NCBI GenBank assembly: GCA_964014165.1
Contig: CAXGZM010000003.1
Coordinates: 1-39,576 of the forward strand
Direction of reading: 5' to 3'
DNA length: 39,576 nt
From: an uncultured euryarchaeote
GTDB taxonomy: Archaea > Thermoplasmatota > Poseidoniia > Poseidoniales > Poseidoniaceae
Position numbers and translations under genes: made by a program. The notes below the pieces were generated by a model. It ran no database searches and was not told where the DNA came from. It was given only the letters and a program-made list of their open reading frames with translations. This document shows, in pieces, positions 10,112 to 28,212 of the stretch (the first letter of the stretch is position 1; every line of letters begins with the position of its first letter).

Positions 10112-10543
10112 TCATTCCTCAAGCGTGTCAAGAAGTTCGTAGCCTTCTTTCATCCACTTGTAGCCCTTAACGGTCCAGTCAAGCAGTTGTTCAACGGCGT
10201 CTTCGCGCAGACCCAGGTGTTCCGAGATGTCTTCCAGCGCATCCCGCTCGTCCTCATCGACCGTACCGTCGGCTGCCGCCATCATCACGGCGTCTCGAAG
10301 CGCCAGCCGGCCGGCTTCGCCGGACAGTTCCTCGAGGCATTCCTCAAGGCTTGGCGGACTCTTCAGTGCGGCGCGAATGGCCTCTCGTTGCCCCGGCGAA
10401 AGGAGGGCTGTTCCGAGGCGTTGTTCGAACATGGCCATTTCATCGACGGTCAATTCGTTATCGATGCGGGCCATGTAAGCCAGCAGGCGAGCGTAGGCAA
10501 AGCGTTCTTCTCGAGGGAGTTTGTGAACGGTGTCGGGTAGCAT
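10112..10543 (-). CDS. TerB-like protein (paralog of the adjacent gene)
   Basis: MARIDNELTVDE and MAAADGTVDEDE motifs; LLDW near the C-terminus as in the neighbour. Confidence 0.85.
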   Translation of the reverse strand: MLPDTVHKLPREERFAYARLLAYMARIDNELTVDEMAMFEQRLGTALLSPGQREAIRAALKSPPSLEECLEELSGEAGRLALRDAVMMAAADGTVDEDERDALEDISEHLGLREDAVEQLLDWTVKGYKWMKEGYELLDTLEE

Positions 10544-24979: not shown

Positions 24980-25114
24980 GGTTGATTCATCCTCAACGGC
25001 CGTCGTTGCCGAGAGCCTTTCTTTTTTGCTCGGTTGGTGAAGGCGACATCAAACCGCAACGAAGTTGACGCGTCGGAGCGACCCACTTATGGTGGTGAGC
25101 GCCATCATCGGCCC

Positions 25115-26188
25115 ATGGACCTGAACGGTGCGACGTGGATGGTTCGTCATTTGGACGAACCCGTCTCCACCGTTCACCTCGACGAACACCAGGGCGTGTT
25201 CGCAGGGGGTTGGGACGGACGCCTCACGCACTGGGACCAGGCCGGTGAACACGTTTGGACGTCCCAAACCAACGATCGCATCAGCGCCCTTGCGCTCAAC
25301 GAAACCACGGTGGTGGTCGCCAGCGGCTTGCACGTCGTTGCCCTTGACCGAGCCACGGGCGAGGAGCGGTGGTCAGCTGCGTTGGAAGGAAGCGCTGACG
25401 CCGTCGTATGGTGGCAGGGCGATGTCGTCGCCGTTTCGTCCGTGTACGATATTGAACACAACGACTTCATCGAGTCAGCGATTTGGCGGTTTTCAGCCGA
25501 CGGCTCCCTTCAGTGGGTGGAACGAATGGACGAGCGTCCGTGGACGCTGATCGAGGTGGACGACCGCCTCCTTGCGGGCCTTGGTCGACCTCGATGCGGG
25601 CATCTCGACGTGTCGGGCTCTCCCCCGTTCACGCACGTCCTACCCCCCTCCTCTTCACCGACCACCTGCGGCACGGGAGGGCGTACCCAAGGGCTCTTCG
25701 GGCAGACCGACGGAAACGTAGTCTCTCACGAGGGGGCAATTTTGTCGACCGAGGCGGGCGCCGTTGAGCACCTCACCTGCATGGTGAAAGGCTACGTGGC
25801 GACGACGGATGCTGGACTGGCCGTGGGCCGTACGGAAACCGGCGAGCAGTGTTGGTCTTCGGACGGTGCCCCGGTGTCAGCCCAAACCGAGGCCATGGAG
25901 CACGAGGGTGCATCCTTGCTTTGGTTGGCTCGTGATGAAGGCACGGGGAGCAGCGTCCGAGTATGGGCGACCAATCGCGGAGGCATGATGGCCGACGGCT
26001 CCTTTTCCAAAGTCCGGTCCATGCACGGGACCCATGAACGCATCGTCATCGGGTGCGAGGACGGCAGCCTTCACGTGTGGGAGCGCGAGATGCTCCACCG
26101 CCGTCTGAGCAGTGGCGCACCGCCGGCGGAAGAAGTCGACGAACGCACGTCGGCCCTTCAGGCAAAACTTCGGGCACTTCGCCGCTGA
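25115..26188 (+). CDS. PQQ-like/WD40 beta-propeller protein
   Basis: GGWDGRL, ALDRATGEERW and GCEDGSLHVW repeats; short C-terminal helix LQAKLRALRR. Confidence 0.8.
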   Translation: MDLNGATWMVRHLDEPVSTVHLDEHQGVFAGGWDGRLTHWDQAGEHVWTSQTNDRISALALNETTVVVASGLHVVALDRATGEERWSAALEGSADAVVWWQGDVVAVSSVYDIEHNDFIESAIWRFSADGSLQWVERMDERPWTLIEVDDRLLAGLGRPRCGHLDVSGSPPFTHVLPPSSSPTTCGTGGRTQGLFGQTDGNVVSHEGAILSTEAGAVEHLTCMVKGYVATTDAGLAVGRTETGEQCWSSDGAPVSAQTEAMEHEGASLLWLARDEGTGSSVRVWATNRGGMMADGSFSKVRSMHGTHERIVIGCEDGSLHVWEREMLHRRLSSGAPPAEEVDERTSALQAKLRALRR

Positions 26189-26189
26189 C

Positions 26190-27791
26190 TCATCCCTGCT
26201 TGGGGCCTGTCATTTGCTCGGGGCGCACCCACTCGTCGAATTCCTCGTTGGTCAGGTAGCCGAGCTCCAGCGCAGAGGCCCGCAGGGTCGTTCCCTTCTC
26301 GTGGGCGTTCTTGGCGATCTTGGCGGCTTTGTCGTAGCCGATGTGATTGTTGAGGGCGGTGACCAGCATCAACGAATTCTCGAGGTGGGACTGGATGTTG
26401 TCTTCCACGGCCACCAACCCTTCCACGCAGCGCGTTCGGAACGTGCGGCACGCATCGGTGAGCAGGTCCACGGAGTGAAGGAAGTTGTGAATCATCAGCG
26501 GCTTGAAGACGTTCAACTCAAAGTTGCCCTGGCTTCCGCCCACGGTAATGGCGGTGTGATTCCCCATGACCTGACAGCACACCATCGTCATCGCTTCCGA
26601 CTGGGTCGGGTTGACCTTCCCCGGCATGATGGAGGAGCCCGGTTCGTTGGCGGGCAGCGCCAGTTCGCCCAAACCGCAACGAGGCCCCGAGCCGAGCCAC
26701 CTGATGTCGTTGGCGATTTTCATCAGCGAGGCCGCCAGCGTGTTGAGTGCACCCGAGGCGGCCACGATGGCATCGTGAGCGGCCAGTTGGGCAAATTTGT
26801 TCTCGGCCGAACAGAAGGTCAGGCCGGTGATGTTGGCGATTTCATCGGCGACCATCTGGGCGAAGAGCGGATGTGCGTTGAGGCCCGTGCCCACAGCGGT
26901 ACCGCCCAGCGCAAGTTCGAACAAATCGTCCAGTGCAAAATCCAATCGGCGAAGGTCGGCGTCGAGTTGGGCGACCCAGCCCGAGGCTTCCTGCCCGAGG
27001 GTCAGCGGAACGGCGTCCATCAGGTGCGTACGACCGATCTTGACGATGTCAGCCCACTCGACGGCTTTGGCGTGAAGGGCGTCGCGCAGGGCGCGAACGC
27101 TCGGCAGGAGGCGATGGGTGAAGGCTTCGGCCGCGGCGATGTGCATGGCCGTGGGAAAGGTGTCGTTGGAGGATTGCGCTCGGTTGACGTGGTCGTTGGG
27201 GTGGACGGGTGTCTTGGAGCCCAGCACGCCACCGGCGAGCTCGATGGCCCGGTTGGCGATGACCTCGTTCGTGTTCATGTTGGACTGCGTCCCGCTTCCG
27301 GTCTGCCACACTCGGAGAGGGAAGTGGTCGTTGAGGTGACCGTCAATGACGTCCTGCGCAGCGGCGATGACGAGGTCGCCCACTTCAGGGTCGAGTTGCT
27401 TGAGGGCCACGTTGGTCTTCGCCGCAGCCTGCTTGAGAATACCAAATCCACGAATCACGCCCAGCGGCATGGTGTCGTGACCGATGTCGAAATTGAGCAA
27501 CGATCGGGCGGTTTGGCAACCGTAGTAGCGGTCGGCGGGGACCTCAAGTTCACCCATCGTGTCGGACTCGATGCGGACTTCGCCTTCCGGTGCTTCCGCT
27601 CGCAGGGACTGCGCTGGTGGAGCAGCCACGGCAGGCGATTGACCTTCGAGCCCCTGCTGAATCAGGCGAGCGATGGTGGCGGAGCGACCGTCAGCACGGC
27701 CTTTGCCGACTTTTCGGTCCAGCTTTTTCGCAAGGTCTTCGGGGATGCTGATGCTCATGATTCGGCGGTCGCCGGCGCGATGTTTGGCCAT
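26190..27791 (-). CDS. fumC: Class II fumarate hydratase with an N-terminal ribbon-helix-helix domain
   Basis: [47 protein letters not shown] and [11 protein letters not shown]. About 70 extra N-terminal residues are in frame. Confidence 0.96.
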
Positions 27792-27812
27792 GCTTCCAAG
27801 CCCGTAAAGGCG

Positions 27813-27834
27813 TTTAATAAATATGATTGAATCA
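27813..27834 (-). promoter_or_regulatory. fumC promoter: TATA box plus an adjacent 11-bp palindrome
   Basis: Minus-strand TATA-like ATTTATTAAA at 27822-27813, lying 22-31 nt upstream of the ATG. TGATT-G-AATCA at 27824-27834 occupies the BRE position. Confidence 0.6.
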
Positions 27835-27894
27835 AGACGAGAACACCAATCGCGCTCGAAAAAATTTTTCAAATTCATTCATACAGCATTCGCC

Positions 27895-28212
27895 ATGGAA
27901 AGGAAATCGTCGTGGTGGGAGCTGCTCCCATCCCTTTTCATTGTCTATCTCGGGATCAACGTCATCATCGAAATGACTCAACGCGCGCAGTATTTTTCAC
28001 AAGGCGGAGGCATTTTCCTTACCATCTTCTTCTGCTGTGGTGGGGCTGCTGGCTTCCTCACGGGAGGGTACATGATCTTCTACGGGTTTCGGTGGGCGAG
28101 AAAGGTCCTTCGTGGAGAACACACGGGCGCTGAATTTAATCTCAAGTTTACAGCGACGGTGGACAACGAAGATGAGGATCCGTATTCTACGCGTACGTCG
28201 GACGAACCCTAG
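27895..28212 (+). CDS. Hypothetical membrane protein (2 TM), lower GC
   Basis: Start MERKSSWW with TTTTCAAA at about -29; two hydrophobic helices. Confidence 0.6.
   Translation: MERKSSWWELLPSLFIVYLGINVIIEMTQRAQYFSQGGGIFLTIFFCCGGAAGFLTGGYMIFYGFRWARKVLRGEHTGAEFNLKFTATVDNEDEDPYSTRTSDEP

Follow-up and report, generated by a model that had tools for sequence, protein, structure and literature searches.

A ribbon-helix-helix domain fused to class II fumarase across the archaeal order Poseidoniales: a candidate autoregulatory trigger enzyme

Trigger enzymes are rare, and those with a fused DNA-binding domain (PutA, BirA, RbkR) show the link between metabolism and transcription most clearly. PutA consists of a ribbon-helix-helix (RHH) domain, a proline dehydrogenase and a pyrroline-5-carboxylate dehydrogenase, and switches its function by flavin reduction and membrane binding. 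NikR combines an N-terminal RHH domain, a linker and a C-terminal domain that tetramerises and binds a small molecule, with two RHH dimers per tetramer. Among archaea, RbkR is a riboflavin kinase with a DNA-binding domain that controls its own pathway (PMC5397151). Here, we analyse a fusion of an RHH domain to class II fumarase (FumC) that is encoded on a 39,576-nucleotide (nt) stretch of DNA (the window; contig CAXGZM010000003.1 of assembly GCA_964014165.1) from an uncultured member of the Poseidoniaceae, order Poseidoniales. A preliminary description of the locus, made from its sequence alone, had proposed that an RHH domain, a Pro/Ala linker and a complete FumC with intact catalytic motifs share one uninterrupted reading frame, and each part of this architecture has held up (Table 1).

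We take the N-terminal RHH fold as established by sequence profiles and structure prediction. Its layout comprises a basic N-terminal arm, a predicted beta-strand (IMSISIP), a helix at residues 18-28, a loop (GKGRADG) and a second helix at residues 36-49. Pfam RHH_1 (PF01402) matches residues 13-49, scores 22.3-23.0 bits against a cutoff of 20.5 when the domain is scanned alone (residues 1-64) and 22.1 bits in the genome scan, which placed the match at 27645-27755; all 31 orthologous N-termini match the same model (E <=0.01). RHH_1 clusters are also indicated by a protein-language-model atlas. AlphaFold2 (AF2) on the alignment gave a model with a predicted local distance difference test score (pLDDT) of 82.3, in which an extended N-terminal segment precedes helices 18-28 and 36-49; no sheet is assigned to the strand in this monomer model. 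An exhaustive VIA-align comparison with 48,161 representatives of the Protein Data Bank (PDB) retrieved almost only RHH proteins, including the Rv0298 antitoxin (Z 5.0), AmrZ (4.8), ArtA (4.7), NikR (1q5v, Z 4.4; also 2bj1 and 2ca9), SvtR (4.3), the PutA RHH-operator complex 2rbf (Z 4.2, root-mean-square deviation 3.0, 44 residues) and Arc (4.0), with further fold matches to omega, ParG, ParD, RelB and FitA. Four titles among the best 50 entries name RHH explicitly, and about 40 of these 50 are presumably RHH proteins. The fold assignment rests on the uniformity of this list and not on single Z scores. VIA-align was used in place of Foldseek, for which the 53-residue model is too small (no PDB match at E <=0.001, 16 at E <=10). 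A search of the RHH profile against PDB sequences returned nothing meaningful, with no chain at E <0.5 and RNase PH (E 0.54) as the best hit.

A 128-amino-acid (aa) open reading frame (ORF) from another family of the same phylum, whose best NCBIfam matches are NikR models (all under cutoff), is by profile comparison the closest detectable relative of the fused RHH. The profile of the 31 N-termini aligns to the RHH of this NikR-like protein without gaps over columns 10-44 (hhalign 94.5%, E 7.4e-8). RHH_1 matches elsewhere in the window's genome (G000) are limited to C178:1708-1818 and C143:679-777, in frames of 141 and 155 aa. These two frames are of NikR size and might be relatives of the donor of the domain.

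The remainder of the protein is assigned to class II fumarate hydratase by its equivalog score and signature loop. TIGR00979 (fumC_II) scores 756 bits against a cutoff of 664.75, with residues 72-528 covering model positions 1-457 of 458; Pfam places Lyase_1 at residues 80-410 (E 1.9e-111) and FumaraseC_C at residues 476-529, and query residues 71-530 align to residues 3-462 of Escherichia coli FumC (1fuo). H256, S386/S387, K392 and N394 are invariant among the 31 orthologues; we take GSxxMxxKxN as the definition of the signature loop and presume that the catalytic positions are equivalent to those of the E. coli enzyme. Because the FumC core is covered end to end, the enzyme is complete without the 69 N-terminal residues, which have been added to it. 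In comparisons with solved fumarases, the best-matched stretch begins at query residue 60 or later, except for one mitochondrial entry (residue 40). RHH-FumC is the only fumarase detected in G000 (80% complete); class I fumarase was not found there, and the second match to the lyase family is a distant one (E 2e-8).

The N-terminus is conserved to the same degree as the enzyme that it precedes. Between genera, identity amounts to 0.75 in the RHH (residues 1-49), 0.15 in the linker (residues 50-69) and 0.75 in the FumC core; the linker also varies in length, and fused proteins total 529-538 aa. Within the genus, codons 1-49 have a median nonsynonymous divergence (dN) of 0.11 and a median synonymous divergence (dS) of 1.21 (45 pairs), i.e., a dN/dS of about 0.09. 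Twenty-two of the 53 alignment columns are invariant in the 31 N-termini (M1, H4, R5, G7, R9, R10, I11, S13, S15, P17, E18, A21, L24, D25, V28, G29, G31, and G35-T39). Along the strand, invariant positions (11, 13, and 15) take turns with hydrophobic ones that vary conservatively (12, 14, and 16), and R9, R10 and the GRSAT residues capping the beginning of helix 2 are invariant as well. Positions 11, 13, and 15 presumably correspond to the DNA-contacting strand residues of NikR, and I11, S13, and S15 are expected to face DNA. In the full-length model both helices are kept, linker residues 50-59 have pLDDT <50 and there is no confident docking onto the enzyme. As judged from conservation and models, the RHH is under selection and folds independently, with a flexible connection to the enzyme.

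On the minus strand, a single open frame runs from 27878 down to 26190 (562 aa from its first ATG), and coordinate 27791 is the ATG of the 533-aa product, which begins MAKHRAGD. Because all fused relatives start with M-(A/S/V/G)-(K/R)-H and the translation upstream of that Met is without conservation, comparison among orthologues identifies the ATG at 27791 as the true fumC start; in two relatives (L003, L005) the frame opens only one codon ahead of it. This conserved start Met at residue 1 speaks against translation beginning near the FumC core, an objection that the preliminary description had raised along with a linker interrupted by a stop or frameshift. Close to the FumC N-terminus, Met occurs only once, as the conserved M79 in the DTMG motif. 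Among the fused loci examined, none has an in-frame stop that would separate the RHH start from the core, and neither a stop nor a frameshift interrupts the fusion frame of the window. A metatranscriptome run (X1) yielded contigs identical to the window at 27213-27538 and 27533-27755, the latter of which spans the RHH, the linker and the FumC start with 0 differences. X1 provides contigs only, from which start, strand and level are unreadable; DNA carry-over is possible, and uncovered parts carry no meaning.

A survey of relatives, as the preliminary description had envisaged, revealed that the fusion is order-wide. Fumarase is present in all 41 relatives studied (one order, three families, eleven genera); its match begins at residue 1 in 33, begins at about residue 70 in six and is cut by contig ends in two. 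In a sample of the phylum (401 genomes, 50 families), strong matches to the RHH profile are confined to two families of this order (23/58 in f1 and 34/36 in f3). Three weak matches elsewhere in this sample (E 4e-7 to 3e-6) lie in frames of 134-150 aa, of which the one examined is NikR-like. Searching residues 1-80 against 5.8 billion proteins gave 196 clusters at E <=0.001 among 725 candidates. Most of the 120 clusters listed are 528-544 aa long with Lyase_1 and FumaraseC_C, those with names are 'class II fumarate hydratase' of Candidatus Poseidonia, Thalassarchaeum, Poseidoniales or Thermoplasmatota, and none of the 120 carries an RHH flag in the precomputed Pfam columns. Only 43 matches to the RHH profile were found among 1.84 billion cluster representatives. 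Eighteen of them were inspected and are the fusion or its truncated, frameshifted or adapter-contaminated fragments, including a more divergent clade that is likewise fused to FumC (P0145, P0159), with one possible stand-alone protein of 85 aa (E 2e-4). As the profile matches inspected are almost all the fusion or its fragments, this RHH subfamily appears to be tied to FumC only. In P0122 (133 aa) and P0121 (112 aa), what follows the RHH and linker is unrelated sequence, and both are probably assembly chimeras or frameshifts; several other short database matches end in adapter-like peptides.

Twelve loci encode FumC without the RHH, each beginning 2-4 residues ahead of the conserved VRIE.DT motif. 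In maximum-likelihood trees of the enzyme core, these unfused sequences are nested among fused ones. The best 39-row tree (careful method) requires five changes, of which well-supported branches force at least two; the best 66-row tree (quick method, 11 unfused) requires six, of which at least three are forced. The simplest history suggested by these trees is a single acquisition no later than the origin of the order and several subsequent losses, because the RHH is present on every deep branch and homologous throughout. Unfused loci L019 and L020 share the upstream neighbour of the fused loci of their genus, a gene ending in TLRILK that encodes DNA topoisomerase IB (TopIB), which indicates loss in place. 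A stand-alone copy of this RHH was not found in five unfused genomes of the genus (best E 0.63; completeness 82-94%). One bin (G010) contains both a fused (L014, contig C9) and an unfused fumC (L039, contig C13). The latter groups with the g12-type loci L071 and L072 (Shimodaira-Hasegawa-like approximate likelihood ratio test, 92), has a promoter closely like theirs and could reflect mis-binning or gene transfer.

The fusion is accompanied by a fixed promoter element. TTTATTAA at 27814-27821 occupies -30..-23 relative to the fumC ATG, in line with the TATA-like element that had been noted at the expected distance from the start codon. A leaderless archaeal mRNA would have its TATA box at this distance. 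In all 54 fused loci with usable upstream sequence, either TTATTAA or the reverse-complement form TTAATAA begins at -25..-31, and neither heptad occurs within -60..-1 in any of the 12 unfused loci. G000 (1.74 Mb, 58.5% GC) contains four heptads in total, and of 546 other genes whose start is confident, only one has a heptad within -60..-1; the average promoter of G000 has a weak AT peak at -30..-24 in which words of the TTCATG/TTCAAA type are enriched. The 16-mer ATATTTATTAAACGCC occurs once in the genome even with three mismatches allowed. The 17-mer TTATTAATAASTAATTA (<=2 mismatches) is unique in each of five genomes searched, every time at fumC; the reversed pattern, used as a control, has 1, 1, 7, 0, and 0 sites in these genomes. 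Many relatives have a second copy, in some of them as TTATTAA-N4-TTATTAA with an 11-bp period (e.g., L033, L063, L064); the common form is TTTATTAATAA(C/G)TAATTAA, whereas for the divergent g14 clade the arrangement is TTAATAA-N13-TTAATAA or TTATTAA (20-bp period). In L066 (G268), L055 (G342) and L025 (G037), a second AT-rich copy lies a few tens of nt upstream, with TTTATTAATTACTAATT present twice in L066; these copies may be extra operator sites. A genome-wide depletion of the heptad, which might have pointed to avoidance of stray binding sites, was considered and rejected, as all AT-only 7-mers are rare in G000 (median 9; heptad 4).

The catalase-peroxidase gene katG provides a comparison at the same promoter position. 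In G000 (contig C182, ATG at 1678 on the minus strand, L076), katG has TTAATAA at -29, and this element drifts in relatives (TTAATAA, TTAATAT, TTATATG, TTATATA, TTATAAG). Of 22 katG promoters, only four have the exact heptad; all four are among the 18 from genomes with RHH-fumC, and none is among the 4 from unfused genomes. A co-regulon of katG and fumC was therefore dropped, and the katG heptad is best read, from this pattern of drift, as an ordinary TATA box. That the katG box drifts whereas the fumC heptad is unchanged across three families argues for constraint on the latter beyond TBP binding. The two remaining heptads of G000 lie beside a tRNA gene (C45) and within a different, TTAACGC-type repeat (C13). 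The repeats on C13 (about 10350-10430; TTTAACGCC, AATTAACGC, ATTATTAACGCG, GCGTTAATC) stand directly upstream of a 455-aa ORF (start 10431) and may serve some other regulator as an operator array.

FumC forms homotetramers, and the DNA-binding unit of RHH domains is a dimer. In the FumC tetramer, as seen in the E. coli structure, pairs of N-terminal domains are located at each end of a central helical bundle. It is tempting to propose that RHH-FumC is a bifunctional fumarase with a NikR-like build that represses its own leaderless promoter, a reading that we prefer and consider to have an even chance of being correct. The protein would be a housekeeping class II fumarase homotetramer bearing, on the N-terminus of each subunit, a NikR-like RHH domain on a flexible linker of about 20 residues. 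The RHH domains would pair as dimers at the tetramer ends, with the FumC tetramer in place of the nickel-binding core of NikR; two RHH dimers per tetramer are plausible because the N-termini are paired at the ends and the linkers measure 17-26 residues. These dimers might bind the TTATTAA/TTAATAA heptad or heptads at and just downstream of the TATA-box position and thereby compete with TBP/TFB or RNA polymerase. Blocking the recruitment of TBP/TFB or polymerase is the usual mode of archaeal repressors. The outcome would be negative autoregulation of the fumarase level, i.e., feedback control of a housekeeping tricarboxylic acid (TCA) cycle enzyme. We infer dimerisation, DNA binding, the operator role of the heptad and repression, and the co-occurrence of a fixed heptad with the RHH favours autoregulation.

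Several observations weigh against autorepression by this fusion. RHH_1 scores 18.4 bits in the whole protein, which is under the cutoff; the pLDDT of the RHH falls to about 50 in the full-length model; and no structural match exceeds Z 5.0, a low value in itself that can be attributed to a domain length of only about 45 residues. Prediction of a homodimer (two copies of residues 1-53) reached 0.30 against a mark of 0.42 and speaks neither for nor against dimerisation. The window promoter has a single heptad, at least two exact copies are found in only 26 of the 54 fused loci, and conservation of the 12 nt after the heptad is only moderate, at 0.56 compared with a background of 0.41-0.48 (16 genus representatives). 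The heptad lies exactly at the TATA position and could be just an unusually canonical TATA box, and its loss together with the RHH may reflect replacement of the 5' end of the gene plus its promoter. The RHH was lost at least three times and is hence dispensable in some lineages.

An extension of autorepression is that the fumarase acts as a sensor, such that fumarate or malate in the active site or the B-site alters the engagement of TTATTAA heptads by the RHH dimers. We regard this step, which takes up the fumarate/malate response suggested in the preliminary description, as tentative and rather unlikely. If true, flux through the TCA cycle would directly govern how strongly fumC, and perhaps a few further genes, are transcribed, and RHH-FumC would be the first enzyme of the TCA cycle to carry a hard-wired DNA-binding domain with sequence specificity.

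A DNA-damage role has been reported for class II fumarases in eukaryotes. A bacterial precedent is reported for Bacillus subtilis (PMC5711358). By analogy, the RHH might tether the fumarase to DNA or the nucleoid for a non-transcriptional purpose, e.g., local malate or fumarate in a DNA-damage response, with the heptad being a TATA box. The TopIB gene immediately upstream in the genus and the AT-rich TATA boxes at the same position of katG in these genomes fit such a function. However, the TopIB adjacency is not kept, as family f3 has a cyclophilin-type isomerase (identity read from sequence) at this position, RHH domains are typically sequence-specific operator binders, and tethering leaves unexplained why the fumC heptad is invariant across the order while the katG TATA box drifts. 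We therefore deem a tether unlikely.

Regulation of other genes in trans, such as those for central carbon metabolism or oxidative stress, with binding at the own promoter absent or incidental, would accommodate the second promoter-placed heptad of G000 at katG (-29 from the ATG) and the link between FumC and oxidative stress known from E. coli. Yet none of the four heptads in G000 is located at another TCA gene, the katG heptad is restricted to the minority of RHH-fumC genomes given above (4/18) and the 17-mer element is unique to fumC in 5/5 genomes, which makes a regulon in trans distinctly improbable.

The RHH fold could also serve without binding DNA, either as an oligomerisation or docking module (FumC assemblies, a metabolon) or as a binder of its own leaderless mRNA at the 5' end. 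RHH folds dimerise obligately and can act as interaction modules, and the DNA binding of RHH-FumC is putative. Such a module is nevertheless hard to reconcile with the invariant basic N-terminal arm and polar strand face, the homology to the DNA-binding domain of NikR-like regulators and the co-conservation of a specific promoter element with the domain, and we consider it highly doubtful. Finally, an artefact, whether from a wrong start, a chimeric assembly or readthrough of a separate small RHH gene into fumC, is barely conceivable and effectively refuted: some database entries are indeed chimeric or frameshifted (P0121, P0122), but the same in-frame architecture recurs in 33/41 relatives under a dN/dS of about 0.09, no in-frame stop occurs from RHH to core in the loci examined, an RNA-library contig bridges the junction with 0 differences and the sole Met near the FumC N-terminus is the conserved M79.

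Table 1 Features of the RHH-fumC locus and its surroundings, in window coordinates
Feature	Position	Strand	Basis or remark
RHH-FumC fusion coding sequence	26190..27791	minus	533 aa; stop codon 26190-26192
RHH domain, residues 1-49	27645..27791	minus	Pfam RHH_1, AF2 model, PDB structural search, hhalign
Flexible Pro/Ala/Ser-rich linker, residues 50-69	27585..27644	minus	Hypervariable, low pLDDT
Class II fumarase (FumC) core, residues 70-533	26193..27584	minus	TIGR00979, Lyase_1, FumaraseC_C
Fumarate-lyase signature loop, residues 385-395	26607..26639	minus	Intact; all 11 residues invariant in 31 fused orthologues
TTATTAA heptad	27814..27820	minus	5' end -29 from ATG; TATA-box position; candidate RHH operator
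Promoter/intergenic region, fumC ATG to divergent small ORF	27792..27894	.	Holds 16-mer ATATTTATTAAACGCC (27809-27824)
Imperfect GCC-N6-GGC palindrome	27800-27811	minus	Between TATA box and ATG in the subclade of the window
Small ORF, 105 aa, probably membrane protein	27895-28212	plus	No Pfam match; between TopIB and fumC promoter
DNA topoisomerase IB (TopIB), 391 aa	28262-29437	minus	Topoisom_I E 1.1e-26; bacterial Top1B N-terminal domain E 3.2e-21
PQQ_2-like beta-propeller gene	25034-26188	plus	Convergent on fumC; ends 26188, fumC stop 26190

The gene neighbourhood is conserved in part. TopIB is the upstream neighbour of RHH-fumC in this genus, and in L003-L008 its stop codon is about 60-100 nt from the fumC TATA box. 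The 105-aa ORF was seen only in the window and in L002 (G003). The convergent beta-propeller gene is also present in family f3 (L030, positions 1-1050), and its pairing with fumC is therefore the conserved part of the synteny. The GCC-N6-GGC palindrome is perfect in L008 (GCCGACGTCGGC); it has 12 genome matches at <=1 mismatch and was hence rejected as a distinctive element.

No description of an RHH/CopG-fumarase fusion, but only incidental co-mentions, was found in full-text literature searches aimed at it, within which the claim that no RHH-FumC fusion has been described before is upheld. The main text of two studies on Poseidoniales genomics and transcriptomics (PMC6461757, PMC9723583) contains neither 'fumarase' nor 'fumarate hydratase'. 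Database annotation overlooks the domain, as homologues among the matches listed are named only 'class II fumarate hydratase'. RHH-FumC places such a domain on a core TCA-cycle enzyme throughout a globally abundant, uncultured archaeal order. It offers a concrete candidate regulatory circuit in organisms of which almost nothing is known on gene regulation, and the lineages from which both domain and promoter element have disappeared represent natural knock-outs.

RHH-FumC was compared with several known systems. A type II RHH antitoxin was rejected as a reading because the RHH is fused to a 464-residue enzyme and is not a small stand-alone protein, and the neighbours are TopIB, a small ORF without a family match and a PQQ-like beta-propeller. 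With canonical FumC (E. coli 1fuo; human FH), the archaeal fusion shares the full-length equivalog core and the intact catalytic signature, and differs from it by the 69 extra N-terminal residues. The archaeal RbkR is likewise a metabolic enzyme fused to a DNA-binding domain, although the enzyme is a different one.

With NikR, RHH-FumC shares a homologous RHH and, as we infer, the same build of RHH, linker and tetrameric C-terminal domain. In contrast to NikR, the C-terminal part is a 464-residue FumC instead of a nickel-binding domain of about 80 residues, the ligand, if any, would be the substrate or product, and the candidate operator is an AT-rich heptad and not the NikR half-sites. Membership in NikR was rejected based on the FumC C-terminus and on NikR models that reach 11.6-12.5 bits on the N-terminus, compared with cutoffs of 83-175. 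PutA, which represses its own operon, also bears an N-terminal RHH on an enzyme of catabolic or central metabolism, and its proposed role as a precedent gains support from the presence of its RHH-operator complex (2rbf) among the fold matches. However, the enzyme domains are unrelated, no switch comparable to that of PutA is evident for FumC, and membership in PutA was rejected because Pfam gives only Lyase_1 and FumaraseC_C after the RHH; RHH-FumC may still work like PutA. What is new here is an order-wide, selected RHH-FumC fusion, and the kind to which it belongs, RHH-enzyme trigger proteins such as PutA, is already known.

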